From contig JBEKHW010000001.1 in assembly GCA_050012075.1 (NCBI GenBank), forward strand, positions 4,766-68,765: a DNA stretch of 64,000 nucleotides, given 5' to 3'. The first letter of the stretch is position 1. Each line of letters begins with the position of its first letter. The notes below the pieces were generated by a model that was not told the DNA's origin, ran no database searches, and was given only the letters and a program-made list of their open reading frames with translations. The translations under genes and the position numbers were made by a program. Source of the stretch: Candidatus Omnitrophota bacterium. Its GTDB lineage: Bacteria; Omnitrophota; Gorgyraeia; Gygaellales; Profunditerraquicolaceae. This document shows positions 27,451 to 63,899 of the stretch, piece by piece.

Positions 27451-27460
27451 CCCTAATTCG

Positions 27461-30939: not shown

Positions 30940-30952
30940 ATATGCTCCTCGG

Positions 30953-31020
30953 GGTCACAATGTCACCGAGTCACAATGTCACATAAACCTTGTGACTTTG
31001 TGGCCTTGTGACTTTGTGAC
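30953..31020. repeat. heptamer hairpin R6 (GTCACAA family) between the metK stop and ahcY RBS
   Basis: GGTCACAATGTCACCGAGTCACAATGTCACATAAACCTTGTGACTTTGTGGCCTTGTGACTTTGTGAC. Confidence 0.6.
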
Positions 31021-31023
31021 TAC

Positions 31024-32202: not shown

Positions 32203-32290
32203 CCCTCACCCTCCTTAAATAAGCCATGCCTATGGCGTTTATGGCTTATTTAACTCCACGCTATGCGTGGAGCTTCATTTTAGTAATGTC

Positions 32291-33025
32291 TTAGAAATTC
32301 TCTTGTGCCAATCCGTAAAATTTATAATCTCCTATATCGTACCATTTACTGCCGAACGCGACGCCATATACGGCTTCCTTTTTCCTTAACCAGTCTATAT
32401 AAAAACCTGTGGCATCGGTCTTACCGTGGTAAGCTTCTTTATATTCTTTCATAAGGCCAAGCTTTTCTTTCGGGAAATAATACAGGCACATTGCTACGAG
32501 CGTTGACTCCGGCGCTTCCGGCTTCTCCTTGAAATCAACAATCCTTTTTTCATTATCCAGCTTGACTACTCCGTAGCGGCTGGCTTCTTTTATATCCCGG
32601 ATATCGTAAATTCCCATACTGACATTGGGAAGATGCCTAGAGGTAATATCAACGAAATCATTGAGAGAACCATCAAACAGATTATCTCCTCCCACGACCA
32701 GTAAATCTTCGCTTATGCTTTTTGCATTAACCACGAAATCTATGTCTCCGATTGCCCCGCGCCTGGTTGCGTTATCTTCGGTCAAATCATCCACCAAAGT
32801 AATTAATTTCTTTGCCGCCAGGCTACTCTTCCACTTATCAAAAAAAGGAAAAAATTTGCTGTTAGTGACCACAAAAATTTCATTTATCGCTTCTACCTTC
32901 TGGAGCCCGGATACGATATAATCGATTATCGGCCTGCCTTTTACCTCAAGAAGCGATTTCGGATATTCCTTGGTCAGGGGATAAAGGCGCGTGGCATAAC
33001 CGGCTGCTAATATCAGCGCTTTCAT
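32291..33025 (-). CDS. sugar-phosphate nucleotidyltransferase (NTP_transferase family)
   Basis: MKALILAAGYATRLYPLT..PK.LL nucleotide-binding signature. Confidence 0.7.
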   Translation of the reverse strand: MKALILAAGYATRLYPLTKEYPKSLLEVKGRPIIDYIVSGLQKVEAINEIFVVTNSKFFPFFDKWKSSLAAKKLITLVDDLTEDNATRRGAIGDIDFVVNAKSISEDLLVVGGDNLFDGSLNDFVDITSRHLPNVSMGIYDIRDIKEASRYGVVKLDNEKRIVDFKEKPEAPESTLVAMCLYYFPKEKLGLMKEYKEAYHGKTDATGFYIDWLRKKEAVYGVAFGSKWYDIGDYKFYGLAQENF

Positions 33026-33032
33026 TAAGAAA

Positions 33033-34103
33033 TCAACCTTTGGCTAACTGGTTTTTCAAATACGTGACCCTGTCTACCGGCGTAGGGTCGATACCGTAGA
33101 GTATAGCCAGATAATAAGAAACGAAATCGCCTATATAGGCCAGGGAAAGAATCCTCGCTAACAATTCTTCTCCGTGCGACCATACCTCTATTACCTTTAC
33201 CCCGTCTTTACGCAGGATGTCGGCGGTTATATCCATGCGTTTACTTGTGCGCGGGTGCATATCTTTATCCCTTAGCATTACCACCACAAAATCCTTGAAT
33301 AATTTTTTCGGCTGCTCCCACCCGACAATCTCATTGTGGTTCATCTCCGGAAAAACATGGGAAGAGGCAAGCGCCTTGGAATTCTCGGCAAGCTGTCCTC
33401 TCATACGCGTAGCGCATATGTCAAAATGAATAGACGCGGAATATATGACGGTAAATTTATTAAAAATACTGTTTGCCAGGGATTTCGCTATATTATCCTT
33501 CAGTCCTATTTCCGGCGTAAGCACCCTGTCACGCAGATCTTCCAGCACTTTTATTGCCCCTTTTATCGCAAGCCCTGTATCCTTGATTATCCCTAATTTA
33601 CCTAAGACGCAGAGAGGAATTATACTCTGGTAACCCAGCGCGCAGCGCGGGGGAATGCCCTTGGGTATCTCGATAAAGGTTACATTATCGCGTACGGCCA
33701 GTTCCTTGATCTTTCCTCCTGATGAAAGCGCGATAATCGTAGCGCCCTTTTTTCTTGCCTCCTGATACGCGCTTAATGTCTCTTCGGTATTGCCGGAATA
33801 ACTGGCTATAAATACAAGGCTTGAGGCATTAACATAAGCCGGCAGCGTATATTCGCGTAACACCGTGATAGGGAGGCTACAATCAGAATACAGGTATGAC
33901 CTGACTAAATCCGCGCCGATGGCAGAACCGCCCAAGCCGGCAAAGACAATCTTCCCAAAATCTCTTTTTGCAAATCTTATGCTTGCCCTTTCCCCTATAT
34001 CCTTGGCATAAGAGCACTGCTGGGGAAAATCAAGCAAAAGTGTAAGCATCTTAGATTTATCCAGTTTCTTTATAGCTGCTGCTGAAAGGCTGGACTTCTT
34101 CAT
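33033..34103 (-). CDS. bifunctional phosphoglucose/phosphomannose isomerase (SIS-domain, archaeal-type PGI/PMI)
   Basis: Double SIS-domain architecture, GSA(IG) and S(Y)SG.T.ET boxes. Adjacent to the NTP-transferase. Confidence 0.65.
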
Positions 34104-35830
34104 GCAATAACCTCCCTGAATTTAATCTGCGCGAACTCTTCTACTTCCTTACCGGTTGATAGTTTAAGCGCGTTGTTGGCAATGCTTCGCGCCTCCTTGA
34201 GGCTCACTGCACGGATAATATATTTTATCTGCGGGATTACCTGGGGCGGCATGCTGAATTCATCCAACCCCAAACCCAGAAGTATCAGCGCGAAACTGGG
34301 CTCTCCTGCCATTTCTCCGCACATACCCACCTTTATATTTGCCTGATGGGCAAATACTATAATGTTCCTAATCAGGCGTAATACTGCCGGATGTGCCGGC
34401 TCATAAAGATATGCCACCTTTTCATTCACGCGGTCTACGGCCAGCGCATATTGAATGAGGTCATTTGTGCCTATACTGAAGAAGTCGGCTTCCTCCGCCA
34501 GTATATCGGCGGTCATAGCCGCGGAAGGCACCTCAATCATTACTCCGGTCTGGATATCCTCGTTAAAAGGGATATTCTTGTCACGCAATTCCCCTTTTAC
34601 ATCCTCCAGGACCTGGTTTGCCTGTTTTAACTCTTCGATACCGGAAATCATGGGATACATAAGCTTAAGATTCCCATGGGCAGATGCACGCAGTATCGCC
34701 CTTAACTGAACTTTAAAAATATCCTGGCGCGCAAGGCAGAACCTGATAGCCCGCCATCCTAAAAAGGGCTCCATCTCGTGCGGTATCTCAAATTGGGAAA
34801 GGAATTTATCGCCCCCCAAGTCCAGCGTGCGGATAATCACTGAATTTGGCTGCATAGCTTCAGCCACGTATTTATAGGCCTGGTAATGCTCCTCTTCAGA
34901 AGGCATATCCTTCCTGTTCATATAGAAAAACTCCGTGCGGTACAGGCCTATTCCCTGTGCGCCATGCAATTTAACAGAAGCAACCTCATCCGGAAATTCG
35001 ATGTTGGCTGATATCTCCACAGTATGATTATCGGGAGTGATTGCAGGCAGATCCTTGGCAGTGAGGAATCTTTCTGTGATACCGAGCATCCGCTTTTCTT
35101 CTTCCTGATAATTCCGCAGCGTCTCTTCATCGGGATTAATAATGACAATGCCCATACTGCCGTCTACTATCAGGATATCTCCGGAATTGATTTTCGAAGT
35201 TACCTCTTCAACTCCCACTACCGCAGGTATCTCTAATGCCTTTGCCATAATCGCGGTGTGCGACGTCTTTCCTCCGATATCTGTGATAAAGGCGCTGACA
35301 CTCTGCTTATGCATGGCTGCGGTATCTGATGGTGAAAGGTCATGGGCAACTACAATCACCCGTTCCTTTAAATCAGCAAGTGCCGTGCGCGGCTTGCCTA
35401 AGAGGTGGCGCAGTATGCGCTTACCCACATCGTTTATATCGGCGACCCGCTCTCTCAAATATTCATCTTCTATCTTGGAAAATACCTCGATATATTTCTT
35501 CATAACTTCCGAGAATATGAAGGCGACATTCAGGCGCTCTTTTTTGAGCCGCGAAATAACTTCCTCGATTAACATGCGGTCTTCTAAGACCAAAAGATGC
35601 GCGTCAAAAATCTGCGCCTCATCCTGGCCCATCTCAGCGCCTATCTTCTTCTGCAGTTCGATTATCTCGCGGCGGGTCCTGATCAATGCTTCTTCAAAGA
35701 GCTGTATCTGCAGCGGTATGTCCTGCTCGCCGATCTCCTCCCTCGGGATAATAAATTCCTCTTTACCGACCCTGTAGGCGGGGCCGATACTTATGCCTGA
35801 AGCCGCGGCTATGCCTTTGAGCTTAATCAT
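34100..35830 (-). CDS. ptsI: phosphoenolpyruvate-protein phosphotransferase (PTS enzyme I)
   Basis: Phospho-His region [12 protein letters not shown] plus PEP-utilising C-terminal TIM-barrel motifs. Confidence 0.9.
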
Positions 35831-36096
35831 AAATCTTGTTCTCCAGAAAGAAGCTTCTCTAATTCCACGATGGCTGTTTCGGCGTCCTCTCCGTCTGCTT
35901 CTATAATAATAGTGCTGCCCTTTTCAGCGCCCAGCATCAGTATCCCCATAATGGATTTGCCGTTAACTTCTTCTTCCTCGCGCCTTATGGTTATACGCGA
36001 ATCGAATTTATTAGCTATCTGGACAAAGATAGCCGCCGGACGTGCATGCAGGCCCTGTTTATTATTTACAATTACGCTCTTTTTTATCACTGGCAT
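35827..36096 (-). CDS. ptsH: phosphocarrier protein HPr
   Basis: GLHARPAA His-15 site. 89 aa. Confidence 0.85.
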
Positions 36097-37337
36097 CAGA
36101 TCTCTTCCATAAGGCCTACGATTATTTTGGCCAATCTCACAGGGTCGTGCCGGATAACATCGTCTTCTACTATCGCGAAATTATCTTCGATAACCCTGTA
36201 ACCCATATTTTCAACTTTCTTCCGGTCATTGATAACCAGGTATGAATCCTGCGCAGAATAGCGTTTCAGGGTCCCTGCCGGTATCTCTCCTGTATTTATA
36301 ATGCAATAGTCAAATACCTTAGGATGCGCATGCGCTACCAGCGCATTTATATGGTCCGAGGCGGTATAGCCGTCTGTCTCTCCCGGCTGGGTCATGACAT
36401 TACAGACATATACCTTGATTGCGCCCGAAGAAGCAATTGCCTCTGTAATTTCCTTTATCAATAGGTTCGGGATGATACTTGTATAAAGCGAACCCGGGCC
36501 CAGGATTATAAGTTGGGCTTCCTTTATCGCCTTAAGCGCATCGGGAGTCGGCTGCGGCGCGGCCGGTTCAAGGGAAACCCTGTTAATGGACCTGCGGCTC
36601 TTGGGTATTTTGTTCTCACCTACGGTCGTAGAGCCGTCATCGTGCTTTGCCAAAAGTACTACGTTATTCAAGGTAGAAGGAATAACCTGTCCCCGCAGCG
36701 CCAATACCTTGCTTGTCTCTTTTATCGCTTTCTCGAAATCTCCGGTCAGCTGCGTCATGACGGTAATAAACAGGTTCCCGAAACTGTGACCCGATAGCTC
36801 AGAGTTCGTATCGAAACGGAACTGGAATAAATCACGCATAAGGGCCGGCGCATCAGCCAGGGCTACCAGGCAGTTGCGGATATCTCCGGGCGGAAGTATG
36901 TCAAACTCCTGGCGCAGCCTCCCCGAAGAGCCGCCGTCATCAGCAACGGTAACCACTGCGGTAATATTAGCGGTGTATTCCTTAAGGCCGCTTAATAAAA
37001 CTGAAAGCCCTGTCCCCCCTCCGACTGCCACGATCCGGGGCCCGCGGCTTAATTGTTTCTTCTTATATAGAATATCGACGAGCTCAGTACCCCGCGAAGA
37101 GGGCATAAAGACATTGATAAAAGAACGCATCATCCGCTTTATGCCTAATACGAGAATTATAATTCCGGAAAACACTATTGTCGCGTCCAAAAGCTGTAAA
37201 AGCCAATACTCGTCGGAGCGTAAATGCGCTGTGCCAAAAATAAGTAGTAGCACCCCGAAAGCGCCGAACATTATCCAGCGCTTGATGCCTATTCCCGGGT
37301 AAAGCCATTTGAATATCCGACTGATTCTTGCCAGCAT
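36096..37337 (-). CDS. yvcK: gluconeogenesis factor YvcK/CofD-like (UPF0052) with N-terminal 2-TM extension
   Basis: GPRIVAVGGGTGLS nucleotide-loop of the YvcK/CofD family. The first ~70 aa are hydrophobic. Confidence 0.75.
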   Translation of the reverse strand: MLARISRIFKWLYPGIGIKRWIMFGAFGVLLLIFGTAHLRSDEYWLLQLLDATIVFSGIIILVLGIKRMMRSFINVFMPSSRGTELVDILYKKKQLSRGPRIVAVGGGTGLSVLLSGLKEYTANITAVVTVADDGGSSGRLRQEFDILPPGDIRNCLVALADAPALMRDLFQFRFDTNSELSGHSFGNLFITVMTQLTGDFEKAIKETSKVLALRGQVIPSTLNNVVLLAKHDDGSTTVGENKIPKSRRSINRVSLEPAAPQPTPDALKAIKEAQLIILGPGSLYTSIIPNLLIKEITEAIASSGAIKVYVCNVMTQPGETDGYTASDHINALVAHAHPKVFDYCIINTGEIPAGTLKRYSAQDSYLVINDRKKVENMGYRVIEDNFAIVEDDVIRHDPVRLAKIIVGLMEEI

Positions 37338-52563: not shown

Positions 52564-55500
52564 TTATCGGGAATCCATGACTACGAGAAACGCCTTTAAT
52601 TCAGGGCGCGTCTCTACTACGCCATCCTCCTGCATTCTCAATAAATCACTTAAGGCGCCCGCTGCCTCTTCTATCTGGGCGTCATCATTGCCCTTTACAT
52701 AACAGGCTGTTATATATTCCATAACCCTCTGTTCGGAAGGGATAATGCCCGCATTAAGCATCTTTCTGATCTGAACGGCTTCGTTTTCAATATCCACGCG
52801 CTTAAGGGTATCAAGCGCTGGCATCTTGAAATTTGCTTTTAAATCCGCCAGTTTCGCCTGGGTCGCCAGGTTAATGTAACGAAAATCAATACCGCCGGGC
52901 CTGTTATCACTCTGCAATGTTGCCGGAGATGCTGCCCTTGCCACTGTAATATCCTTATCCGTGGCAATCCTCATCCATTCCTTAGTTATCTTCAGGCAGT
53001 CGGCATAAGCGGTCTTCTTTAACTCATTCAGTTGAGGTCTAGCCATATTCTTTGTTTCAAAAAACAGGTGCGAATAGAAACGCAGCTGTGGCCCGGTTCC
53101 CGACGGACGGTCGGTTATATAGCTGGTCTTATCCTGGTTAAAATAGAATCTTATACCTGCATCAGGATAGCCGCGATAATCCAAATCCTTATCATATTTA
53201 CCGGAGATAAAGGGAGTTTGTTCATCTACGTCGTATAGCTTATAACCTACGACCTGTGGATTGCCTCCACTTCTTATTGTCTCTCTTACAGCCGGCTGTA
53301 AATCTTTCTGCAAGAAACTTACTGCCGCTATCTTTGCCGCTGTCCCCGGGACTGAAACCTCATATTCAATGGGGAAATTAGTAGTTGCCGCAAATCCCAC
53401 CTTAAGATTGATCTCATCAAGAAAATCATTCAGGGTCCTTCCTTGAGCACGGAGAGCACTGGCAATCTCTGCCACCCTGACGCCTGCCAGGAATCCGTCT
53501 TTATCGCGGATATGGTTACCCGTTGTATAAGTGCCGCTCTCTTCGGGCCCGGCAACCACGTCTCTACCCTTCTCCTCTAATTTGACTATTTCGGAAGCTA
53601 CCTGGTCAACTCCTACCGGCTTGACAACTACTTCTACCCCAAATAACTCTGCTATCTTCTGTATCTGTAAAGTAGTAACATGGGTACTAACCAAGATATG
53701 CTTTTTAGGGTCGAGTTTTCCCTGGGCCTTTAACCAGTTAAGGTCATAGTAGATAATAAGCGCGTTCCATTCATTGGGAGGGATAACCCGGAAACCGCCA
53801 AAGCCATATCTTGCTTGCTCATCCTTGTTAAGCTTGACCACGACGCCCATTGTCTCGGCAACAGCATCATCTTCAGGTATCTCTTCGGCGCTTACCCTGA
53901 CCACCAGACCAAACCTGTCTGCGTCAGGGTCGCTTGCAGTAAAGAAATCCTTTTTAAGCAGCTCTTCCCTGCTGTGGTTACTAAGATATGCGGTTATGGC
54001 CTTCTTCCAGGATATAACTAAGGCCGGGTCAGGCGGCTCCATATCGGCAAATTCGGGGAATGTGCCGTCTAACTCAGCCATCTTGTCTATTATTTCGACG
54101 TTAAAGCCCTTTGCCCGCAACGCGCGCGGCATTGCCTTTATGCCTGCGCCGTGGAAAGAACAATAGAGGATATTTATATCCTTGGCATACTTCTTGATTA
54201 CATCCTCATTCTTAATGTGTTTTAATATTGCCTCTGCATGTATAGTATGGGTATCTACCAGGCTGTGGTTGCCATAATCAATATCCGGAAGTTTTTCTTT
54301 TCCACCCATAAATACTAATTGCTCAGACGGAGTTTCATAAGGCACCTTATCCAATAGATCATCTACTTCCTTAAGCTTAGCGCTCCTGAATTCTTTCATT
54401 ACCGCTGTGCGCATTGCCTCATCCGCTCCCAGCTGCATACCGTCTGCGCCGATTAATTTTACGCCGTTATCCAGCTTGACATTATGGCTGGCAGAGACAA
54501 ATATACCGATAGCTGCTTTGCCTCCTGATAACTTCTGGAGGGAAGCGGAGAACTCCGGAAGGGGCATGGTTTCATCGGAAACATACACCTGCACCCCAAA
54601 TGCCAACCCTATATTCTTGATTATCTCGGCAAATTCCTTTCCGGCTATCCTGCTGTCGTAAGCAGTGAACAATTTCAGGTCTTTCCTATTTAAAGAGGGG
54701 TTCTCACTTTCCAGCCATTTCAATATTCCCAACGTAAACTTACGTAGGACCTCATCATTAAAGGTATTGGGCCCTTTCAGTAAAGGCACTTTTAAACCTC
54801 TGCCCTGTTTAGCCGCCTCTGCTACTTTCTTGAAATCTGCACCAAAGGCAAATCTCCCGCGTACCCCAGCCGTGCCATAAGGTATATTGTCAAAAAACGC
54901 CTGCGCAATCTCTGCCCAGCGGCCGTCTTTTATAGCTTCCTCTATACCTTTATATGTACTTTCGGTTACATAGGGGTCGGTGTACCATTCGGCAAGGTTT
55001 GGGATGACATTTTTCATCCCCTTTTCATAGTCCTTCGCCGGTATCTTCCGGTTGGCGAATTGCGTATAAAAGTAATCTTCTATGGCTACAGCTGAAGGCC
55101 TGATGATCTTTTCCAGATTTCCTATCCTGGTTAACTCATCCGGTGACTTACCTCTATAAGTAGCAAGTAAGTTATTTACCAACTGGTTGGGGTCTACGCG
55201 GTTCAATTCCCCGGTAGTCGGAGAGCTGGCATAGTGGGGGCCTGCTGCGGTTTCAAAGAGAACTTTCGCGCGGTTAAAAATACGGGCGGCAGTCATCATG
55301 CCGTCAGGCGTTGAAATATCAGGCAGCATCAATATCGCTACATCCTTATGGAAGCTTTTCTTATAAGAATTGCCTTTATAATCTATGGCGTCAGTCGTCA
55401 CTCCGCCGCTTAGGGACTTGAACTCTGCCTGCACAAATCCCCGGCGTACTTCGTCGGTATACATCCCATCAAGATAATCATTGGCAAGGCCGTAGGTGCT

Positions 55501-58500
55501 GATTTTTTTCTGCGTTTTAACTACCCGCTCATAAGGCATTACTACATCAACCAAGAGTGTTGAGACGACATCCTTTCCGTCGTGGCGATGCTGGAAATTG
55601 GCATGCTGGTCGCGTGTGCCTATGCCGTAATCTATATCCTGCAAAAATTCACCAAGGATATCTGCTTCTGGGCTCGCAGTGTAAAAGACCGAACTTAAGA
55701 CTTTATCCCTGTCCTTGGCAATCAGCTTAAGCGCAGCTATCTCTTCTGCCGCCTTCTCAATCTGGAAATCCGACATATTTTTCCCGAAACCGCTTATCTT
55801 CTGGTATAGGGTGTATATCTGTTTATCCACATCTTCAATGCGCCTCTGAAGCTGTAATCTTTCGCCTGCTCTCTTCAGTTCTACCGATAGATCCGCGATC
55901 TTGTCTTTAAGGCCTTTTATCTTTTTCAATGTATCCAAGAACTCCACTTCACTTACCTCTACGGTTCCGCCCTTGGCTAATTCAGCTTCGGCAAGTTTTT
56001 GCCGTGCCCAGGCAATTTCTAAGCGCGCCTTACCCAATAGCTTAACCTTTGAATCCTTATCCAAGCTTTTGCTTCCGGTCTCATCGGCTATATTTATTTC
56101 ATCATAGTCAATATATTTTTCTTGTCGAATACGCTCTTCAGCTTTCTGGTATCTGGCTTTGATCGCCTCATCCGACTTATCCAGCGCATTCAAAATAGTG
56201 ACTAGGACTCCCTTAGCCAGTTCAACCATCGGCTGGTTCTGCGGGTCCCTTAGCCACCAGAAATTCGGCTTACCGTCTAGAACAGGTTTGTTCATTAAAG
56301 AAGCGCCTACTTTTGGTATGGTTAGCTCAAGATTATTCTCTTTAGCCATATCCGCTAAGCTAAGAAGCCCGTAACGCACGGTAAACTCCTGGAACCAGAG
56401 GGCAAACTTGGCATTGGCAAGAGGGGATATTTCTTCCTTGAAATAACGGATTACAGGCACGCCTTCCGGTACTGCCATCGGCGCCATTCCTGCCTGGTCT
56501 ACTACAACTACCAACGGCTCTGTGCCAGTCTGTAACTTTATCTGCTCTACTTTTCTTTTAAGCTCTTCTTCACCTATGCTGGTCACAACCCATATCCCCT
56601 GTCCGTCTTTACCATTGCTCTCGGGGAACAACTGCTCTTTTTGCAATGCCTCTGAACGGGCATTGGAGCCGCGCACCGCAACTATCATAAATGAAGGGTC
56701 AAGGTAATACGCCAGTGTCGCTGCGCGTAAGGCGCTGTTTTTCTTAGGGTCGTTCCCGGCTTTACCAAGGTATTTTTTCGCCTGTTCCTGCAAAGCATCG
56801 CGGTCTACAGCTACGCCCTGGAAGACCTGGGTAATATCACCGGTCTCGCAGTTCTCGGTAAACCTGCCTCCGGTAAATTCCGAGAAATCAACTGCCGCGA
56901 TATCAGCGATATTCAATTCTTTCATGCCAAGGACAAATGCGTAGAGCCGGCTTGCCGCGGCATTCCTGGAGGTGCTGAAGATTATCCTGTCAAAAACTGC
57001 AGAGATGACGGACTGCTCTTGCGCATTAAACAGCTTGTTGAACTCCGCCTTGGACATGCCTTTAAAAAGCTGGTCCTTTTGTTTCCCCTTGTTAAAGTCC
57101 TTGAGAAATTTGTTCCATTTATTGACCATGGCTATGGCGCCCTCATTGTCCATGCCTTTTTCTATTGCCATAAGCCGCAGGAATTCATTTATTGCTTCCT
57201 GATATAAACTGAGGGGTTCATCAGTCCCGCCTGATTTAGAGCTTACATGCAGGACTATCTGGGTTATCTTGTAACCCTGACGAAGGAGGTCTTGGAATAA
57301 TTCGCTTACGCTTCTACCAAGCCTGTCCAGGACAATAACATTGGCGTCGCTATCTGTCCCCCAATACTCTACCTCTACGCTATTAGACATCCCCTGTCCG
57401 CCGATACCGAAATGGATCATCAGCCTGGCACCATCTGCTTTCTTTTGCTTAGTCCAAGTCACTATAAACTGATGATTATCTACCCGCAATGCGCCACTGG
57501 CGTCTTTATAACCAAAGCGGGAATTCAACTGGCCGGTCGGTTCCGGATACATTGCTTCTTCTCCGCTTGCTTCATAATCAGCTGCCAATTGTAGGCGGCC
57601 GTTAACAACAGAAGCAAGGTCTTCAAAATTAAACCATTCCCGAGGCCCTTCAAAAGATATTGCGGCATCCGAAAAACGCTGGAATTGCGTTGCAGGAGAA
57701 GAGGCTTTTTCATATTTAGCGTGGACTTTTGTTGCGATCTGGTTAATAGCCACTACAAGCTCACCGCTTCTGTTCTCAGGATGAGCTTTCGTCTCTTCCA
57801 GCTGTTTAATAAATAACGGATTCTGGGCTCTTAGCGCGTTAACAATTTCTCTTCTTTCCTGCACGACACGAAGTAATTCTTTATCTAATTCCGCATCACG
57901 GTTAGAAGACAACAAATTTACATCCAGATATATCTGCGCTCTACCCAAACTATAGTGGGTTCTCTGGCCCTTGATGAATATTAAAGTAAAATCCCGCCAA
58001 AATATCTGGTCATCAAGCTTCGTTATCCTGGAAATGGCTGCTTTTACAGTCTCAAGCTGTTCCTCATTAAGCCGTATCTTTTGTTGTTCAACCGATACCG
58101 TAGCTGTAAAGCCAAGTGGTTCCCCTTCAAAAACAATAGAATCTTGAACAACTCCCCAGTTGTGTTCTTTTGGCACCCCAATACGCCTGGTAAAAGGAAG
58201 ACTTACTCTAGCAGCGGCAAATTCGCCTCTTTGAATGGCCAGGCTTATCTCCTTATTATAATCCTCATTTAGCAATACCCAGTCCGTTGCTTCTGCCGGG
58301 GAAGAAGCTCTTACATATCTATCATGGACTTCTGTTGCAACTTCGTTAATAGCTTTTCTAAGCTGGGAGCTTCTTCTTTCAGGATGGGCTTTTGTGTTTT
58401 CCAGCTCTCCGATAAATGCCGGATTCAGGGCTTTTAGCTTGGCGCGGATTACTTCTCTTTGCGCCACTGCATTATTTATTTGCCTATTTAACTCTATTTC

Positions 58501-60720
58501 GCGGCCGGGATTTAATAAATTCAAATCCAGGTATATCTGAGGCCTACCTATACTGAAATGGGTCGTCTGATCTTCGATAAATATTATGGTAATATCCTGC
58601 CACTCTAATTTATCATTAAGGCCGCGTGTTTTATAAACGGCTGTATCTAACGCCTTAAGCTGTTTCTCGTTAAGCCGTATCTTCTGTTGGTCAGCAGAGA
58701 CTGTAGCTGCAAAACCAAGGGGTTCCCCTTCAAAAATAACAGACCATTGGAGCGGATGTAAAGCCCCATCCGGAACAATTGCCCCTTCAGATATACGTAT
58801 CATTTTAACAGCGGCAAATTCGCCTTTTTGGATAAGGGGACGCATCGTCCGGGTATAGTCATCATTTATCGCTTCCCAGGTAACCGCTGCCGGAGAAGAG
58901 CCTACATACAAATTATCCTGTTTAACGTTAACGCCTGTTGCGACCACGTTAATAGCATTTATCAGCTCAAGGCTTCTTCTTTCAGGATTAAGCTTAGTTC
59001 TTTTCAATTCTTCGATAAATTGCGGATTCATGGCCCTTACCATTGCAAGGACTTCTTTTCTTGCTTCCATCCCGCGAAGCAATTCCTTTATTAATTCCGA
59101 TTTACGGGAAAAAGCCGGGGCATTATCCAATAAGCTCGCATCCAGGTATATTTGGTCTCTGCCTATGCTGTAATGGGTTTTTTGGCCCTTGATAAATATT
59201 AAGGTAATGTTCTCCCGATCCAATTCCGCGGCAAAGTCGCTTCCGATCGCAAAAATGGCTTCAACTAAAACCTCAAGCTGATTACTATTAAGTTGTATGT
59301 TTTGTTCTTTGATAGCCACCGTAGTTGAAATGCCAAAGGGTTCTCCTTTTGTGAAAACAAGGGGGCATTGTAAAGGTCTCAGGGCCTCGTGTATTAGGCT
59401 ACCTGAAAGAGGGCTTAGCTTAACAGCGGCAAATTCCCTATTTTCTATCGCCTTACGTATCGCTTGATTAACTTCATAATTGACCAACTTCCAATCAACG
59501 TCTGTAGCCGAAGAAGAACCTTTCTTTTTTTCTTTATTATCAGCGGCTACTTCGGGCTTAAGATTCTTGTCAGGGCCGACAAGATAAGTTACTGCTTTTC
59601 CATCCGGACCGACACTAGCTTTTAGGACTTTACCGGTTAAAGCCCCTGTTCCACCTATTCCTGTGGTGATAAATATAGTGCTAAAATTAGCTCCTCCGCT
59701 AAAATAGCTGCGGATTACCTTGCCGCCGGCAGTATTGACCGGTTCCTGCAGGTTGTATTCTCCTTCTTGAAATGACTTCTTGTAGGCGTCAAAATATGTC
59801 TTTGGCGACCAGTTTTGCGCCGACGCCAGGCCCGTAAGGTCTTTTTTGTCTATCCTGGTTGCGTAGGTGCCTTTACCATTACTGAATTTACCCTTAAAGT
59901 ATTGCGCCAATATCAGGGAATAATAAACCTGGCGTAATTTAGCGTAGCGCAAAGAAGTATTCACTTCCTTGGTAAGCTGCGGGATTATGAGTTCCCGTAT
60001 AAGCTGTGAGGAATATTCATTGAGCGCTTTTTCGCGGCTGTCCTTGAAACTATATGCGTTTGAACCCTTAATATAATCCTGCTCCAACATTACTTTCAAC
60101 GTGGCCTTGTAGACATAGGCCTGTGTATCGGAATAATTAAGGATGACCTCTCCGGGAACGATCCAGGGACGTGTAAGCGTGGGGATAGTGACTATGGTAG
60201 AGGCGCCGTAAATCTCGTCTGCCTTCTTATAAAGCTTCTCCCAGTAGGCCTTACCTGTAGGATTAGCAGGAGAAGTAAATGCCGCCGTATCTTTCTTAAG
60301 CTGCAGGTCTGCTTCCAGCATGACCCTGCCCAGTTCAGTCAAAGCCAGGTCCTTGTCAATTATCTTGTTCTCTGAATCCGGTTTTAAGTTTACCCAGAAA
60401 GCGGCATTAGGCAGGCTTATGCCTGTCAGGAAATATTTAAAGGCATCTTTACTTTCGTTATTTATATCGATAACAGCCTTATTCTTCGTATAGCCCTTCT
60501 CAATAAGCAGGCGGAAGGTGCTTGCGGCGTCATCGTAGGCAAAATATCTTAAATGCGGCAGGCGGGTTACATCAGCAAGCTGTGGGCTAAAGGGCTTATT
60601 TAATAGGTAAGAAAGATCAAGCTGGCCAGCCAGTTGCGCAAAACCTGTCTGCTGCAATAAAAGGCAACAGGTTGCTATTGTTGAGATTATTTTTGTAAAT
60701 CTTTGTTTTGCCGTTTTCAT
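52564..60720 (-). CDS. giant secreted multidomain protein (~2718 aa): signal peptide, N-domain, 3 tandem ~195-aa repeats, glucose-6-phosphate-isomerase-like domain, coiled coil, phosphoglucomutase-like domain, C-terminal extension
   Basis: Single stop-free frame. Start set at ATG 60718-60720 behind AGGGAGAAGAGA, giving MKTAKQRFTKIISTIATCCLLLQQTGFAQ (Sec signal-like). PGI boxes: FGIGGQG, VSSKSGGTDEP, GGRFTENCETG, DPQNQPMVELAK. PGM boxes: GTAGVRG, AIGIFVSASHN, GPEESGTY, RPSGTGPQLRFY. Confidence 0.7.
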   Translation of the reverse strand: MKTAKQRFTKIISTIATCCLLLQQTGFAQLAGQLDLSYLLNKPFSPQLADVTRLPHLRYFAYDDAASTFRLLIEKGYTKNKAVIDINNESKDAFKYFLTGISLPNAAFWVNLKPDSENKIIDKDLALTELGRVMLEADLQLKKDTAAFTSPANPTGKAYWEKLYKKADEIYGASTIVTIPTLTRPWIVPGEVILNYSDTQAYVYKATLKVMLEQDYIKGSNAYSFKDSREKALNEYSSQLIRELIIPQLTKEVNTSLRYAKLRQVYYSLILAQYFKGKFSNGKGTYATRIDKKDLTGLASAQNWSPKTYFDAYKKSFQEGEYNLQEPVNTAGGKVIRSYFSGGANFSTIFITTGIGGTGALTGKVLKASVGPDGKAVTYLVGPDKNLKPEVAADNKEKKKGSSSATDVDWKLVNYEVNQAIRKAIENREFAAVKLSPLSGSLIHEALRPLQCPLVFTKGEPFGISTTVAIKEQNIQLNSNQLEVLVEAIFAIGSDFAAELDRENITLIFIKGQKTHYSIGRDQIYLDASLLDNAPAFSRKSELIKELLRGMEARKEVLAMVRAMNPQFIEELKRTKLNPERRSLELINAINVVATGVNVKQDNLYVGSSPAAVTWEAINDDYTRTMRPLIQKGEFAAVKMIRISEGAIVPDGALHPLQWSVIFEGEPLGFAATVSADQQKIRLNEKQLKALDTAVYKTRGLNDKLEWQDITIIFIEDQTTHFSIGRPQIYLDLNLLNPGREIELNRQINNAVAQREVIRAKLKALNPAFIGELENTKAHPERRSSQLRKAINEVATEVHDRYVRASSPAEATDWVLLNEDYNKEISLAIQRGEFAAARVSLPFTRRIGVPKEHNWGVVQDSIVFEGEPLGFTATVSVEQQKIRLNEEQLETVKAAISRITKLDDQIFWRDFTLIFIKGQRTHYSLGRAQIYLDVNLLSSNRDAELDKELLRVVQERREIVNALRAQNPLFIKQLEETKAHPENRSGELVVAINQIATKVHAKYEKASSPATQFQRFSDAAISFEGPREWFNFEDLASVVNGRLQLAADYEASGEEAMYPEPTGQLNSRFGYKDASGALRVDNHQFIVTWTKQKKADGARLMIHFGIGGQGMSNSVEVEYWGTDSDANVIVLDRLGRSVSELFQDLLRQGYKITQIVLHVSSKSGGTDEPLSLYQEAINEFLRLMAIEKGMDNEGAIAMVNKWNKFLKDFNKGKQKDQLFKGMSKAEFNKLFNAQEQSVISAVFDRIIFSTSRNAAASRLYAFVLGMKELNIADIAAVDFSEFTGGRFTENCETGDITQVFQGVAVDRDALQEQAKKYLGKAGNDPKKNSALRAATLAYYLDPSFMIVAVRGSNARSEALQKEQLFPESNGKDGQGIWVVTSIGEEELKRKVEQIKLQTGTEPLVVVVDQAGMAPMAVPEGVPVIRYFKEEISPLANAKFALWFQEFTVRYGLLSLADMAKENNLELTIPKVGASLMNKPVLDGKPNFWWLRDPQNQPMVELAKGVLVTILNALDKSDEAIKARYQKAEERIRQEKYIDYDEINIADETGSKSLDKDSKVKLLGKARLEIAWARQKLAEAELAKGGTVEVSEVEFLDTLKKIKGLKDKIADLSVELKRAGERLQLQRRIEDVDKQIYTLYQKISGFGKNMSDFQIEKAAEEIAALKLIAKDRDKVLSSVFYTASPEADILGEFLQDIDYGIGTRDQHANFQHRHDGKDVVSTLLVDVVMPYERVVKTQKKISTYGLANDYLDGMYTDEVRRGFVQAEFKSLSGGVTTDAIDYKGNSYKKSFHKDVAILMLPDISTPDGMMTAARIFNRAKVLFETAAGPHYASSPTTGELNRVDPNQLVNNLLATYRGKSPDELTRIGNLEKIIRPSAVAIEDYFYTQFANRKIPAKDYEKGMKNVIPNLAEWYTDPYVTESTYKGIEEAIKDGRWAEIAQAFFDNIPYGTAGVRGRFAFGADFKKVAEAAKQGRGLKVPLLKGPNTFNDEVLRKFTLGILKWLESENPSLNRKDLKLFTAYDSRIAGKEFAEIIKNIGLAFGVQVYVSDETMPLPEFSASLQKLSGGKAAIGIFVSASHNVKLDNGVKLIGADGMQLGADEAMRTAVMKEFRSAKLKEVDDLLDKVPYETPSEQLVFMGGKEKLPDIDYGNHSLVDTHTIHAEAILKHIKNEDVIKKYAKDINILYCSFHGAGIKAMPRALRAKGFNVEIIDKMAELDGTFPEFADMEPPDPALVISWKKAITAYLSNHSREELLKKDFFTASDPDADRFGLVVRVSAEEIPEDDAVAETMGVVVKLNKDEQARYGFGGFRVIPPNEWNALIIYYDLNWLKAQGKLDPKKHILVSTHVTTLQIQKIAELFGVEVVVKPVGVDQVASEIVKLEEKGRDVVAGPEESGTYTTGNHIRDKDGFLAGVRVAEIASALRAQGRTLNDFLDEINLKVGFAATTNFPIEYEVSVPGTAAKIAAVSFLQKDLQPAVRETIRSGGNPQVVGYKLYDVDEQTPFISGKYDKDLDYRGYPDAGIRFYFNQDKTSYITDRPSGTGPQLRFYSHLFFETKNMARPQLNELKKTAYADCLKITKEWMRIATDKDITVARAASPATLQSDNRPGGIDFRYINLATQAKLADLKANFKMPALDTLKRVDIENEAVQIRKMLNAGIIPSEQRVMEYITACYVKGNDDAQIEEAAGALSDLLRMQEDGVVETRPELKAFLVVMDSR
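57700..59500. repeat. intragenic tandem repeats (3 units of about 590 bp, roughly 65-70% nt identity) inside the giant ORF
   Basis: Protein repeats EFAAVK..GEPLGF..TV...QKIRLNE.QL......I....L....W.D.TLIFI..Q.THYS.GR.QIYLD..LL in three copies. Diverged nucleotide copies visible around 57.9, 58.5 and 59.1 kb. Boundaries approximate. Confidence 0.55.
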
Positions 60721-60760
60721 TCTCTTCTCCCTAAATAAATGATGCTTATAGTTTTGTTTA

Positions 60761-60779
60761 CTCCGCGCTATGTGCGGAG
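60761..60779 (-). terminator. CATAG-loop hairpin CTCCGCACATAGCGCGGAG between the HD-GYP operon and the giant gene
   Basis: 7-bp GC stem with CAUAG loop, 40 nt upstream of the giant-gene RBS. Same hairpin type as the ilvN terminator at 20962-20989. Confidence 0.45.
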
Positions 60780-60981
60780 CTTCTATACCCCATATAAACA
60801 AAAATCCGGATTAACCCTTTAATGTTAATCCGGTTATGGCTACTTCAGGAAGTAACCCGTGGCGTATTCTAGCGTCCTCCACACCAGAATCACCGGAATA
60901 CTAAATACTTTTTAAAATTACGCTATAAAGTATATACTATACAATAATTTTGTCAAGGCAAAATCTTAAAAAAAATGCCTT

Positions 60982-62283
60982 TTATACCAGGGAGCTTTCT
61001 ATCTTAATCTTCCCTTTTTCTGCCTTTAAATCAACTATCTCTTCCTCCCCTTGCTGTCCACTGGACACTCCAACCTTAGGCAGAAATATCTCCTCGCTGT
61101 TAATCTCTCTTACCACCCCTGTCCTGCCGTCAGACAACTGCACCCTGGTGCCTACCGGCCAGACGCCTATCAGCTTAAAGAACCTATCCAGTAAAACAGG
61201 GTCAAAAGAAACCCCTCTCTCCTTCGTCATTATTTCATAAATAGTTTCCGGGGGGTAGCTGCGCTTATAGCCCCTCCTCTGGGCAAGGGCGTCATAGACG
61301 TCGCATATGGAGACGATTAAAGAAGCCTTATGCTGTTTGTATGGAAAAGACAATTTAGGATAGCCACTCATGTTATATTTCAGGTGGTGCTCAAAACTCA
61401 CTATTATAGGCAACATCCCCAGTTTATCGGCATATTTAAGCAATATCTCAGCGCCAAGTGCCGCGTGGTTTTTAATCTTGTCGAACTCTTCAGTGCTCAG
61501 GCGCGATTCTTTACGTATTAATCCGCGCGAAATATAGATTTTGCCGACGTCATGAAAAAGGCCGGCCATCCCCATTTCAAGCACGCCTTCTTTTTCAAGC
61601 CCCAGTTTTGAAGAAAAATACATTGCCAGTATCGAAACATTGAGTATATGCGAAAATGTCCTGGTGTCGAACTTCCTTAAAGTCGCGAAATCCAGGAGCT
61701 CCTGATATTGCCCGATAAGCTTCTCCATGACTTCTTTAAGGGTATAGCGCAGGGTAAGATGGTCTAGATCCACTTCGTTAAGTATCGCCTCAACGGAGTT
61801 ATTTACCTTGTTGAGCGAATGCTCATAGAGATTTAGGCGGTCCATTGCCTCCTGGACTTTATCCATCTCCACGGATAATTTTATCTTACCCACCAATATG
61901 TTTTTTACGCCCATCCCGGAAAGATTCTCCTGTATCTGGTCACCGGTCTCTTCTCTGGATGCCAGGAGGGAAGATATGAATTTCGCTAATTCATCCTCCC
62001 GTAAGCCGCGCAGGAAATGAATCCTCTCAATCCCTTTAGCCTTCAGGAATAGTATTGCGGGCATAGCCAGCTCGCTCAGGTTGAAAAATATCTCCTTTTC
62101 AACGGCCAGTTCCTTACCGACTATACCGATGACTAATTCCTGCTCTTCTCCCAGGATATCCGTAACGCTCGCATAAAGTTTTCCAATGGATTTCTTTACC
62201 TGTGGATGGTCAGGATTATACAGCCTTGCCATCTGCAGGGCGGAAAGCAGGTCCCTTATACAGCTTTCAATTCTTTCTTTCAT
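60982..62283 (-). CDS. HD-GYP domain protein (putative c-di-GMP phosphodiesterase) with N-terminal sensory domain
   Basis: H..HDVGK metal motif, HHLKYNMSGYPK GYP motif, and downstream conserved D/E residues. Confidence 0.75.
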   Translation of the reverse strand: MKERIESCIRDLLSALQMARLYNPDHPQVKKSIGKLYASVTDILGEEQELVIGIVGKELAVEKEIFFNLSELAMPAILFLKAKGIERIHFLRGLREDELAKFISSLLASREETGDQIQENLSGMGVKNILVGKIKLSVEMDKVQEAMDRLNLYEHSLNKVNNSVEAILNEVDLDHLTLRYTLKEVMEKLIGQYQELLDFATLRKFDTRTFSHILNVSILAMYFSSKLGLEKEGVLEMGMAGLFHDVGKIYISRGLIRKESRLSTEEFDKIKNHAALGAEILLKYADKLGMLPIIVSFEHHLKYNMSGYPKLSFPYKQHKASLIVSICDVYDALAQRRGYKRSYPPETIYEIMTKERGVSFDPVLLDRFFKLIGVWPVGTRVQLSDGRTGVVREINSEEIFLPKVGVSSGQQGEEEIVDLKAEKGKIKIESSLV

Positions 62284-63899
62284 CCAATTTTCTCCAGTGC
62301 CTGGCTTGCCCTTTTACGCAACTGCCTGTTCCATGCAAACGGCCTTTTGCTCAAAATAAGGAGCCAATCCTTTGCCTCTTGTAATTTTACTTCTTCTACA
62401 ATCGCGATATGCTGCACTAGCGTCTTATTGTTGATTCCAAAAGGGCTAGGTATTGCAAAAAGGATGGCCAACAGTTTCTTTATGTATCCAGCGTCTGTAC
62501 TACAGACCTGGATCGCTTCTTTTTCCAGCAATATTTCCCCTTTCTTAAAAATAGCCAGAAGTATACTGAAATCGCAAAGGTTCAGGCGCCGATAAGTCTT
62601 CAACACCTCTATTCTCGCTATATTGTTCGAGGAATGGAATATGGTCTTGAGGATCTCTTTTGAGAAAGATTCATTTATTTTATCCAGGCTCATCATAAGC
62701 TTAGCTAGGAATTCAATATCCGTATGTCTCGCTACCATTGCGCTTAAGAATTCCCGAAGATTATCCGGGAAAAACCTGAAGAACAACTCCAATATAAAGG
62801 GGTTCACCTTTTCCTCAGTAAATATCTTCTCCAGATAAACCATGGGATTGAATAAAGACACCTTCAGGTTATCAGAGAAAAATCCTATTTCACTTCCTTC
62901 ATTGAGGCTGCCCTCCATAATCCCTGTCTCTACAAAATCTGTTATCTGCCTGCTGAGATTATCAAAAAGATGGGCCGATTTCGGATCTTCCTTTACCTTT
63001 GTCTCTAAGCACTGCCAGACTAACTTAACGAACGGCAGATTTTTTTCTTCTATTATCTTCTTAAGCTCGCTAGAGAGATTTTTGAGGATCGGCTCCAGCT
63101 TCTGTTGGTCTGTTTCCATGGCCGCCAGGTTCAAAAGCACATGGCGATAATTATCTTCCAGGCTAGGAGTTTCAAATGAAAAAATCTCCTCTTCGGCCAT
63201 ATCTTTTGTAAGCGATGAAAGCGCATGGCGATAAAATTCGGAAACCGCGATGGTCTCGTCTGAAGAAAAAATCTCTTTGATTTTCTTGCGCAGCTTAGAG
63301 TCGGTCTTAAGCGCCTCGGAATTACGTATCTTGTCTGCGAGAGAAATGCTGATATTCTTATTCCTTTTCTCCTCGACAAGCCGCGAAAATACCGCGAGGC
63401 TAAGATAATCGAATTTTTCGTTATTCAGAAGCTGCTCCTCCAGGACCTCCACAAAATCTTCGTCAGCAAGGTCTTCGAAAAATGACTTTATTTTCTCCGC
63501 CTTTTGCGTATCCGTGATGCTTATATCCTGAATAGCCCATTTGAGCAATTCTTTATTGCAATTAAGGTAGCGCTCTTTCTCCTTGTCCTTAAGATAGAAG
63601 ATAAAATCATGAATACTCTCTCTTAATTCATCATCGGCCAGCAGGTCACTAACCCTGATCTTCTTTATAATATCGCAGAAATTATCTGCGAATTCATTGA
63701 TCTTTTCGGTGTCTTCTTTGGCTATCGCAGATTGAAGAAAGGGGACCCAGATATCAGCGACCTCTTCCCCTTCACCAGTCAGAAGAGAAGAATAATCCAG
63801 TTCCTCTACAATAAGGTGCGGGTATTTTGCGGGGTCAAGGATATTCTGCACCCCGCCCTTAGCTATTACTTCCTTTTTGGGCATTGAGATCGTGCTCAA
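62280..63899 (-). CDS. hypothetical alpha-helical (HEAT/ARM-like) protein, 4-bp overlap with the HD-GYP gene
   Basis: 539-aa all-helical, acidic ORF. ORF-track start is TTG at 63897-63899; the first ATG is 5 codons in (63882-63884). In-frame stop at 63951-63953. Confidence 0.5.
   Translation of the reverse strand: MSTISMPKKEVIAKGGVQNILDPAKYPHLIVEELDYSSLLTGEGEEVADIWVPFLQSAIAKEDTEKINEFADNFCDIIKKIRVSDLLADDELRESIHDFIFYLKDKEKERYLNCNKELLKWAIQDISITDTQKAEKIKSFFEDLADEDFVEVLEEQLLNNEKFDYLSLAVFSRLVEEKRNKNISISLADKIRNSEALKTDSKLRKKIKEIFSSDETIAVSEFYRHALSSLTKDMAEEEIFSFETPSLEDNYRHVLLNLAAMETDQQKLEPILKNLSSELKKIIEEKNLPFVKLVWQCLETKVKEDPKSAHLFDNLSRQITDFVETGIMEGSLNEGSEIGFFSDNLKVSLFNPMVYLEKIFTEEKVNPFILELFFRFFPDNLREFLSAMVARHTDIEFLAKLMMSLDKINESFSKEILKTIFHSSNNIARIEVLKTYRRLNLCDFSILLAIFKKGEILLEKEAIQVCSTDAGYIKKLLAILFAIPSPFGINNKTLVQHIAIVEEVKLQEAKDWLLILSKRPFAWNRQLRKRASQALEKIG

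Follow-up and report, generated by a model that had tools for sequence, protein, structure and literature searches.

A cassette-built giant protein of Omnitrophota with phosphoglucose isomerase-like and phosphohexomutase modules between two conserved caps

Omnitrophota are widespread, mostly uncultured nanobacteria that are thought to be predators or parasites. The subject of this report is a gene of this phylum, located within a 64,000-nucleotide stretch of DNA (hereafter the window; assembly GCA_050012075.1, contig JBEKHW010000001.1), which encodes a protein of 2,718 amino acids (aa), here called the giant protein, in which modules resembling glucose-6-phosphate isomerase (phosphoglucose isomerase, PGI) and phosphoglucomutase (PGM) are joined behind a predicted signal peptide. 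The closest described systems are larger proteins of the same phylum. The "Archaeovorins," which are at least 30,000 aa long, carry TIM, GPI, FBPase, PGM/PMM, FBA, and PPDK domains that were predicted to be extracellular, a localization that the authors themselves flagged as doubtful (West-Roberts et al., 2023; bioRxiv 10.1101/2023.11.21.568195). Among proteins of at least 10,000 aa, a class of "multi-enzyme metabolic clusters" has been reported, 94% of which bear a signal peptide or transmembrane (TM) helices (Nielsen and Lui, 2026; bioRxiv 10.64898/2026.06.07.730766).

The coding sequence of the giant protein occupies 52564..60720 on the reverse strand (-), as do all parts of the protein located below, and comprises 2,718 codons and a stop codon. 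A preliminary description, made from the sequence alone, had reported one uninterrupted open reading frame (ORF) of 2,718 aa, and this is borne out: a single open frame extends over 52564..60801 (-), with the start ATG at 60720 and GGGAGAAGAGA immediately 5' of it. The translation is identical to P0001, a recorded "hypothetical protein" on a 203,740-bp contig of a Candidatus Omnitrophota metagenome-assembled genome (MAG). The window is ordinary bacterial chromosome, encoding ribosomal protein S2, LpxB, CTP synthase, and three tRNAs, and base composition is even along its length and across the giant gene. The gene is intact and real. Its architecture, previously thought to stand alone, is instead that of one among thousands of similarly built Omnitrophota proteins, since the giant protein bears all three marks of that family: a signal peptide followed by a conserved N-terminal cap, a C-terminal cap, and cassettes joined by SSP linkers. 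The reading favored here, that of a Sec-exported, cassette-built, capped carrier of enzymes, is given as a whole a probability of roughly 0.55; the assignment of the domains and of the family is much firmer.

Two terminal caps and exchangeable cargo

The first 28 residues (60637..60720) have the layout of a Sec-type signal peptide, as had been proposed. By a heuristic reading, four Lys/Arg residues within MKTAKQRFTK precede a 12-residue hydrophobic core (IISTIATCCLLL) and the segment QQTGFA, with predicted cleavage in front of Q29; a heuristic test likewise recovers the tripartite Sec organization, consisting of a positively charged n-region, an h-region of 7-15 residues, and small residues at -3 and -1. 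The same layout is common to 201 of 230 family members, and the core is exactly 12 residues long in 183 of these 201. Across the family the presequence has a median length of 25 aa, three Lys/Arg, and no acidic residue, and its core is followed by F-(E/Q)-Q-x-G-F-A, the apparent cleavage site, and Q-(V/I)-A. Judged from these sequences, the family presequence is of the Sec/signal peptidase I type and homologous across members. Twelve hydrophobic residues are too few to form a stable membrane anchor, and a hydropathy scan revealed no second TM-like segment in the giant protein (no internal stretch with a Kyte-Doolittle value of at least 1.4); such a segment is also absent from 208 of the 230 family members.

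The signal peptide is followed by an N-terminal cap (N-cap) domain of ~315 aa (aa 29-343; 59692..60636). Conserved in all 119 homologs retrieved with the whole protein, with 49-60% identity and ~80 invariant positions, it is marked by the hallmarks FWVNLRPD, LEADLQLKKD, IPTLTRPWIVP, YKATLKVMLEQD, LRQVYYSL, and IRSYFSGG. An AlphaFold2 model (predicted local distance difference test, pLDDT, 71; predicted template-modeling score, pTM, 0.67) depicts a domain of the alpha/beta class that has two long beta-hairpins. Searches with the whole protein and with isolated segments gave no Pfam or NCBIfam match to the N-cap, and comparison of the model with the PDB gave no meaningful fold neighbor. The ~400-aa N-terminal region, which had been called unique, therefore contains a domain common to thousands of Omnitrophota proteins. 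At the other end of the giant protein lies a C-terminal cap (C-cap) of ~115 aa (aa 2606-2718; 52567..52905), which had been taken for part of a mere 150-aa tail. It begins with GGIDFR, in keeping with the GGID[FL] start seen across the family, and is modeled as a bundle of five to six helices with a pLDDT of 81 overall and above 90 over the last 90 residues. Again, no Pfam or NCBIfam match was obtained, and PDB comparison returned generic helical repeats only. Of 230 N-cap proteins, 195 carry the C-cap at the extreme C-terminus (median distance from the end, nine residues), while the 35 that lack it look like contig-end fragments. A C-cap profile run against a set of 5.8 billion proteins matched short contig-end fragments only. 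The two caps differ in conservation, with a median identity to homologs of 56% for the N-cap vs. 35% for the C-cap.

The extent of the family was gauged by an exhaustive HMMER search with the first 400 residues against 1.84 billion cluster representatives; counts from this search are of 50%-identity clusters, fragments included, and taxon labels are given as in the records. At least 7,354 clusters match at E<=1e-3, and 5,047 still do so at E<=1e-30; the matched region is N-terminal in every listed match, and the proteins in the cluster scan range from 410 to 7,391 aa. A parallel survey of species-representative genomes (one genome per species) confirmed 429 N-cap loci, the best 80 of which were used for the analyses of neighbors described below. 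These 80 all belong to Omnitrophota or to unclassified or evidently mislabeled MAGs, with up to five loci per MAG; similarly, labeled family records are from Omnitrophota throughout, apart from a few MAGs that are likely mislabeled or mis-binned. The capped family is thus restricted to Omnitrophota and has several paralogs per genome, although the window itself contains no second N-cap gene.

What lies between the caps varies: members carry a single cassette or several, most of them whole enzymes. A search with the whole protein retrieved hundreds of Omnitrophota proteins of 1,500-4,500 aa, each covering 12-13% of the query at 50-60% identity, and all 119 homologs match at aa 1-~360 and ~2600-2718 with almost no common sequence in between. 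The smallest complete member (609 aa) consists of cap, linker, and cap. According to precomputed Pfam assignments, the cargo of other members includes transaldolase, PGI, PGM, transketolase, FGGY kinases, FBA, TIM, GAPDH, PGK, iPGM, enolase, and PPDK, as well as hexokinase, ROK, FBPase, cellobiose phosphorylase, and guanylate and adenylate kinases, to which MidA methyltransferase, NUDIX, HD, M48, HATPase, HEAT, GGDEF, and other domains can be added.

Cargo units are separated by linkers with the consensus [A/S]-S-S-P-[V/I/L/A]. Outside the N-cap, no tripeptide is more over-represented in the family sample than SSP (6.25-fold), which has a density of 1.5 per 1000 aa in the family, compared with 0.13 per 1000 aa over the window's 44 other ORFs. 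Moreover, an SSP lies no more than 15 aa away from 21% of the cargo BLAST match ends, vs. 4.3% of random positions. In the giant protein, SSP linkers at 608, 806, 1007, and 1832, together with the variants SSS at 402 and ASP at 2597, coincide with the borders of its modules, and matches to cassettes in other proteins end at these same places (P0003 at query 1006-1838, P0002 at query 1832-2599). Because matches stop at SSP borders, the cargo behaves as cassettes that are shuffled among paralogs. A recombination signal at the level of DNA was considered for these linkers and rejected; SSP codons vary freely, which places selection at the level of the peptide.

A further observation concerns twin-arginine translocation (TAT)-type signals. 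Approximately 12 members possess internal SRRxFLK segments of this type within their cargo, often directly after the N-cap; examples are found in P0015 (aa 825), P0016 (2754), P0100 (446), P0116 (389), P0131 (414), P0178 (410), P0237 (395), and others, and in P0144 such a segment (TRRGFII...LAVTAGC) has a lipobox-like end. These sequences suggest that whole genes for exported proteins may have been captured together with their own signals.

The isomerase, mutase, and repeat modules

The larger of the two enzyme modules is a long-form PGI-like module at aa 1008-1831 (55228..57699), delimited by family alignment and profile, the edges of which coincide with SSP linkers and with the ends of BLAST matches to P0003 and P0121. 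The PGI boxes noticed earlier are present, namely GIGGQ at 1105, SKSGGT at 1161, GGRF at 1284 (Arg1286), and QNQPMVELAK (Lys1503), and to these are added PESNGK (Glu1367) and GTRDQHANFQ (His1706). Neither NCBIfam nor the Pfam PGI model (PF00342) matches this part of the giant protein, scanned whole or by segment, and the module alone gives no PDB match by phmmer. A profile of the module and eight homologs, however, matches solved PGIs in the PDB (3ifs, E=1.1e-19; 1b0z, E=1e-17; also 3ff1, 1zzg, and 2q8n), with alignments that span the GIGGS, SKSGTT, GGRFS, and ESEGK boxes. The failure of the direct searches is attributed to membership of the module in a distinct long-PGI family; four stand-alone homologs from this family, which are ~755 aa long and have no signal peptide (P0122, P0125, P0127, P0128), do bear a precomputed PF00342 assignment. 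On these grounds the module is assigned to the phosphoglucose isomerase family (PF00342, double SIS fold).

An alignment of the nine long-PGI sequences (A1) contains the invariant elements GIGGQ, SSKSGxTDE, GGRF, QLFPESNGK, DxQNQPxVExxK, and GxGTxxQH..Q...DG. Its columns E360, K496, H699, R279, and S153-T159, corresponding to aa 1367, 1503, 1706, 1286, and 1160-1166, are all invariant, and we take their catalytic roles to be those of the rabbit and Bacillus PGI residues to which the profile alignments relate them. The Gln of GIGGQ, previously considered a sign that the module might be repurposed, is thus a feature of the entire long-PGI family, in which the Glu, Lys, His, and Arg are kept. The ~120-aa coiled coil that had been listed as a part in its own right is likewise a family feature: a helical, coiled-coil-like segment without Pro and with 39% charged residues (aa ~1506-1660; 55741..56205) is inserted between the Lys and His motifs, so that the His motif follows it, and it occupies the same place in nine of nine long-PGI sequences, stand-alone enzymes included, which makes it part of the PGI enzyme rather than a separate part. 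Outside Omnitrophota, long PGIs are found in MAGs labeled Chlamydiae and Aureabacteria.

The PGM module, an alpha-D-phosphohexomutase module at aa 1832-2596 (52933..55227), was delimited by Pfam domains I, II, and III together with its loops. Over aa 1985-2436, PF02878 scores 66.7 bits (cut-off 22.5), PF02880 47 (20.7), and PF02879 35.7 (29.3), while the Pfam model for domain IV gave no match in the giant protein. All four boxes of the superfamily that had been recognized earlier are intact: GTAGVRG at 1949, the phosphoserine loop SASHN at 2076 (Ser2078), which aligns to ISASHN of the solved GlmM 9g69, the sugar loop GPEESG at 2391, and the phosphate loop RPSGTG at 2538, to which the metal loop DPDADR can be added. 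The module is 68% identical to the corresponding module of P0002 and is assigned by its sequence to the alpha-D-phosphohexomutase superfamily (PGM/PMM/GlmM). NCBIfam equivalogs scored far under their cut-offs and do not fix the substrate; judging by its extended N-terminus and the forms of its loops (DPDADR, EES, and RPSGTxP), the module is presumably allied with phosphoglucomutases of the PgcA/PGM2 type.

With every catalytic residue kept, both modules look catalytically competent. The earlier suggestion that their union in one polypeptide would connect fructose 6-phosphate (F6P), glucose 6-phosphate (G6P), and glucose 1-phosphate (G1P) gains support from P0124 and P0126, fusions of ~1,413 aa found elsewhere, in which a long PGI stands behind a different PGM. 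Two such independent fusions of PGM and long PGI argue for a functional coupling along G1P-G6P-F6P.

Between the N-cap and the PGI module lie three tandem repeats of a ~200-aa domain of unknown function (aa 404-608, 58897..59511; aa 609-806, 58303..58896; aa 807-1007, 57700..58302). Pairwise identity among them is 41-44% in protein and 62-66% in DNA, and the longest word they have in common is 17 nt, values too low for a collapsed repeat. Their lack of a recognizable family, remarked upon before, is confirmed, in that Pfam and NCBIfam scans gave no match to them and a profile of the repeat family found none in the PDB or Pfam; a relationship to SprT-like proteins, touched weakly by one member (E=0.025), was not accepted. 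Homologous units are found in P0004, P0006, P0007, P0009, P0014, P0080, P0117, P0142, P0216, and P0234. In this repeat family H...GRxQIxLD is invariant, and most other members have a downstream H-E-x-x-E-(R/M), a motif suggestive of a metal site; all three repeats of the giant protein keep H...GRxQIxLD and have lost the His-Glu pair.

Promoter, leader RNA, and neighborhood

The giant gene is separated from the upstream HD-GYP-type gene by a gap of 261 nt, which holds a candidate promoter and, ~85 nt before the ATG, a terminator-like hairpin. The putative promoter is sigma-70-like (TTGACA-16 nt-TATACT; 60929..60956 (-)), with 11 of 12 consensus matches, the best of the region, and would give rise to a leader of ~200 nt. 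Within it lies a structured 5' leader RNA (60794..60899 (-)), the only match in the window to a covariance model of the family leader (61.4 bits, E=2.9e-10), which comprises a hairpin with a GGAG loop (60889..60867), the sequence GCCACG (60863..60858), and a terminator hairpin (60833..60806) followed by a U-run.

This element came to light when 300-nt upstream regions from 78 related genes were compared. Its hairpin has 10-13 bp, a stem that varies in sequence among copies, and a U-GGAG-R loop, and is recovered by RNAfold in 28 of 30 cases; it is followed by a single-stranded UGCCACG, of which GCCACG is invariant, and by an intrinsic terminator. A covariance model built on 18 copies and run on 902 kb produced 36 matches at E<=1, 27 of them at E<1e-5, and every one of the latter immediately precedes an N-cap gene, on the coding strand of that gene. 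The copies comprise that of the window, L005:625-719, L027:5890-5982, L010:5846-5945, and those at 32 further loci. Similarly, a regular expression run on 1.8 Mb gave 29 matches, 28 upstream of family genes and the 29th at a gene start. Across the 36 copies all 17 pairs show compensatory changes, and 85.9% of cells are paired, vs. 67.1% in shuffles (0 of 500), while slid partners gave 58% at most; the alignment is model-guided and leans toward the model, and the slid controls and independent per-sequence folds agree with it. RNAalifold on a MAFFT alignment recovered the terminator only, the upper hairpin being revealed by per-sequence folding and the covariance model. About 40% of the sampled family genes, the giant gene among them, carry the leader, in some MAGs upstream of several paralogs (L012, L017, L021). 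In a variant (L012, L013, L017, L030, L037, L049, and others) GCCACG lies within the terminator arm. Among the 4,227 covariance models of Rfam 15, the window leader gave sub-threshold matches at chance level only and those at L006, L012, L016, and L068 gave none. A candidate antiterminator, in which a 5' AUCCGG would pair with the 5' arm of the terminator, is 67.1% paired, vs. 64.3% in shuffles.

Together, the promoter and the terminator-bearing leader suggest control by attenuation: the giant gene would be transcribed from its own promoter through the leader RNA, the terminator of which would attenuate transcription. A different arrangement is seen at 12 loci without the leader (L043, L053, L059, L073, L066, L035, L026, L070, L072, L020, L058, L077), where a perfect 12-bp palindrome, GAAAGCGCTTTC, is located ~100-170 nt upstream of the start of the family gene, with a TTGAAA -35 box following ~20 nt after it. 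In shape the palindrome resembles what we take to be operators of the LacI/CcpA type, and it could mark a transcription-factor regulon.

The adjacency of an HD-GYP gene, noted previously, is confirmed: an HD-GYP-type gene with HD_5/HD matches and an HHLKYNMSGYP motif (60982..62283, its stop at 60982) adjoins the giant gene, and forms with a gene for a 539-aa protein without a Pfam match the upstream pair (60982..63899). Such a neighbor is found at one of the 80 related loci (L015), where 2442-5713 is syntenic with 60982..63899 of the window and lies upstream of a leader-bearing family gene in another MAG. That gene has no similarity to the giant protein past the N-cap; the cargo may differ at an otherwise conserved locus, although the contig ends ~1.2 kb after the cap. 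Tandem pairs of family genes are rare (3-4 of 80 loci). At L045 (3-3191) and 12 other loci, a gyrase-like ORF with an apparent intein/homing-endonuclease-like insert lies by glmS and a gene for an rsmI-like methyltransferase, and this gyrase-like neighbor recurs at one orthologous family locus. The PGI/PMI gene (bact-PGI_C; 33033..34103 (-)) and the sugar-nucleotide transferase gene that had been placed ~20 kb from the giant gene are both found there, the latter as an NTP-transferase gene (32291..33025 (-)). They are part of a region (23323..37337 (-)) that also encodes a dihydroxy-acid/6-phosphogluconate dehydratase, a class II FBA-like protein, PFK, a DUF4139/DUF4140 protein, S-adenosylhomocysteine hydrolase, S-adenosylmethionine synthetase, enzyme I of the phosphotransferase system, and a CofD/YvcK-like protein. 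Given these normal-sized genes for sugar metabolism, the enzymes of the giant protein represent additional copies.

Location, function, and comparison with known systems

Under the favored reading, the giant protein would most likely be translocated by the Sec pathway and work outside the cytoplasm, whether in the periplasm, on the surface of the cell, or where it meets a host, with the caps serving in retention or assembly, and its PGI and PGM pair would most likely interconvert G1P, G6P, and F6P. The internal TAT-type signals in the cargo of the ~12 members described above are counted in favor of this reading, as are the window's separate housekeeping genes for PGI/PMI, PFK, class II FBA, and enzyme I of the phosphotransferase system and the likeness to the enzyme-bearing giants of the phylum. 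Several observations weigh against it. The substrates of PGI and PGM are phosphorylated intermediates, and the phosphosugar, ATP, and NAD requirements of other cargo (PGK, GAPDH, hexokinase, adenylate and guanylate kinases, PPDK) are ill-suited to an extracytoplasmic setting; the stand-alone long PGIs, which lack signal peptides, mark the enzyme as natively cytoplasmic; the AlphaFold2 model of the N-cap is of moderate confidence (pLDDT 71), and PDB comparisons revealed a recognizable fold or partner for neither cap; and no secretion, protease, or partner gene is conserved among the neighbors at the 80 loci, which display housekeeping synteny only (rsmI-like, gyrase, glmS). As phosphosugars, ATP, and NAD are unexpected outside the cytoplasm, a tethered metabolon and delivery into a host are retained as alternatives.

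In the former, which we consider possible but doubtful, the presequence helix would stay uncleaved or fail to drive export, and the caps would dock many enzyme-carrying paralogs onto a shared scaffold inside the cell or onto the cytoplasmic side of the membrane, thereby clustering the glycolytic and sugar-phosphate pathway of an ultra-small cell. The overwhelmingly cytoplasmic type of the cargo, with its need for ATP, NAD, or phosphosugars, is as this arrangement would have it, as are the stand-alone long PGIs without signal peptides and a C-cap that forms a generic helical bundle of the protein-interaction type, and it has been cautioned that extracellular predictions for the giants may be wrong (West-Roberts et al., 2023; bioRxiv 10.1101/2023.11.21.568195). 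A core of 12 residues in 183 of 201 members is nevertheless too short for a stable anchor, the three Lys/Arg before it and the signal peptidase-type site after it (GFA before Q) would, by the positive-inside rule, place the bulk of the protein outside, some cassettes bear TAT-type export signals of their own, and the window contains normal-sized genes for cytosolic PGI/PMI, PFK, and FBA. An arrangement that would fit either location, and that we regard as rather unlikely, is that of a polyprotein precursor in which [A/S]SSP[V/I/L/A] serves as a processing site, such that the giant protein, once synthesized or exported, would be cut into cap, repeats, PGI, PGM, and cap. The selection of SSP as peptide and not as DNA, its position precisely on module borders, and its ~10-fold greater frequency than in other proteins of the window would all be expected of such sites; cassettes look as though entire genes had been captured, in some cases along with a signal peptide, and post-translational cleavage has been proposed for the Omnitrophota giants (West-Roberts et al., 2023; bioRxiv 10.1101/2023.11.21.568195). 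The giant protein contains no protease domain, however, and no protease gene is a conserved neighbor at the 80 loci. In addition, Pro at P1' is unfavorable to many proteases, motifs rich in Ser and Pro are no less characteristic of linkers that are flexible or glycosylated, and the strict SSP has a median of one per family protein in a sample that includes fragments.

The remaining two explanations concern the identity of the protein and its gene. The preliminary description envisaged degenerate sugar-phosphate-binding modules in a surface or exopolysaccharide protein, controlled by cyclic di-GMP through the HD-GYP operon. The adjoining HD-GYP-type gene, its retention at L015, and the failure of the Pfam PGI model to match the giant protein directly speak for this proposal, which is by now largely refuted and very improbable: the catalytic residues of both enzymes are kept, GIGGQ occurs in stand-alone enzymes as well, the giant gene has its own near-consensus promoter and a terminator-bearing leader, 79 of 80 related loci lack an HD-GYP neighbor, and the GEMM cyclic di-GMP riboswitch models gave no match in the leader at E<=10. 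Finally, the ORF could be a chimera or a collapsed repeat generated by metagenome assembly, as its source is a MAG and its order of cargo modules is found in the giant protein alone among the homologs retrieved. Such an origin is exceedingly improbable, since all module junctions are SSP linkers typical of the capped family, P0004 is collinear with the giant protein over 811 aa across the junction of N-cap and repeats, the PGI and PGM cassettes are seen intact in P0003, P0121, and P0002, DNA identity among the repeats reaches only 62-66%, their longest common word being 17 nt, and composition is uniform over the gene.

Beyond the favored reading of the giant protein itself lies a broader and distinctly speculative one, on balance improbable, in which a dedicated system would export or deliver complete enzymes of central metabolism (glycolysis, the pentose phosphate pathway, nucleotide kinases) throughout the phylum, to the extracytoplasmic space or into host or prey, by way of a specialized signal peptide with N-cap, the C-cap, and SSP linkers that may be processed, under the control of a hitherto undescribed riboswitch-like leader. 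The giant protein would then be the G1P/G6P/F6P module of an externalized or host-directed sugar-phosphate pathway, and if such enzymes do act extracytoplasmically or within a host, a new mode of metabolic parasitism would be at hand. Independent of location, the family is searchable by its marks, namely signal peptide plus N-cap, C-cap, SSP linkers, and, in many genes, the leader RNA; it offers the databases two protein domains and one structured RNA that so far lack annotation, and it explains why annotation names capped proteins by whatever cargo is present. Neither the caps, the linkers, nor the leader have a model in Pfam, NCBIfam, or Rfam, and no earlier description of them was found in the limited collection of literature searched.

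Several known systems share part of this design. Cellulosomal enzymes combine a secretory signal and swappable catalytic modules with Ser/Pro-type linkers and a small terminal module for assembly on a scaffold. The giant protein resembles them in its secretory signal, its linked and swappable modules, and a conserved terminal module common to many paralogs. It differs from them in that dockerin (PF00404) gave no match and the C-cap is a bundle of five to six helices without a specific PDB match, as well as in the additional N-cap, the intracellular-type cargo in place of glycoside hydrolases, and the lack of an identified cohesin-like partner. Cargo of the type IX secretion system (T9SS) carries an N-terminal Sec signal and a conserved C-terminal domain across otherwise unrelated proteins of one lineage, as do the capped proteins. 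The T9SS domain, however, is a beta-sandwich of ~80 aa whereas the C-cap is all-helical, no NCBIfam sorting-domain match was obtained, and no T9SS context was seen. Bifunctional sugar-phosphate enzymes (transaldolase-PGI, PMI/PGI, and P0124/P0126) likewise fuse PGI to a neighboring enzyme of the pathway, and P0124 and P0126 have the identical long-PGI family, coiled-coil insertion, and E-K-H order of motifs. These enzymes are ~750-1,400 aa long and lack signal peptide, caps, and repeats, and the mutase of P0124 and P0126 precedes the isomerase and is of another PGM subfamily (TGSHNP type, PF00408).

The closest likeness remains that to the Omnitrophota giants, which share with the giant protein the phylum, N-terminal signal peptides, and strings of otherwise cytoplasmic enzyme domains, including among the domain types shared with the capped family PGM/PMM, GPI, TIM, FBA, PPDK, NUDIX, methyltransferases, HATPase, and HEAT. 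The giants are 10,000-147,000 aa long, mostly with many TM helices, and many have SecA-like or C39/S8 peptidase domains; the present protein, in contrast, is 2,718 aa long, lacks internal TM helices, and is free of SecA-like, C39, and S8 domains. It therefore falls outside the definition of an Archaeovorin (at least 30,000 aa, many TM helices, SecA-like plus C39/S8 domains), which it resembles in kind only, and as far as the two papers on such giants are searchable, neither mentions these caps and SSP linkers or the leader. Taken together, the giant protein appears to be an ordinary member of the capped family, the defining features of which appear to be undescribed, and the enzyme-bearing phenomenon of the giants is now shown in thousands of tractable proteins of 0.6-7 thousand aa, of which the present one is one-tenth giant size.

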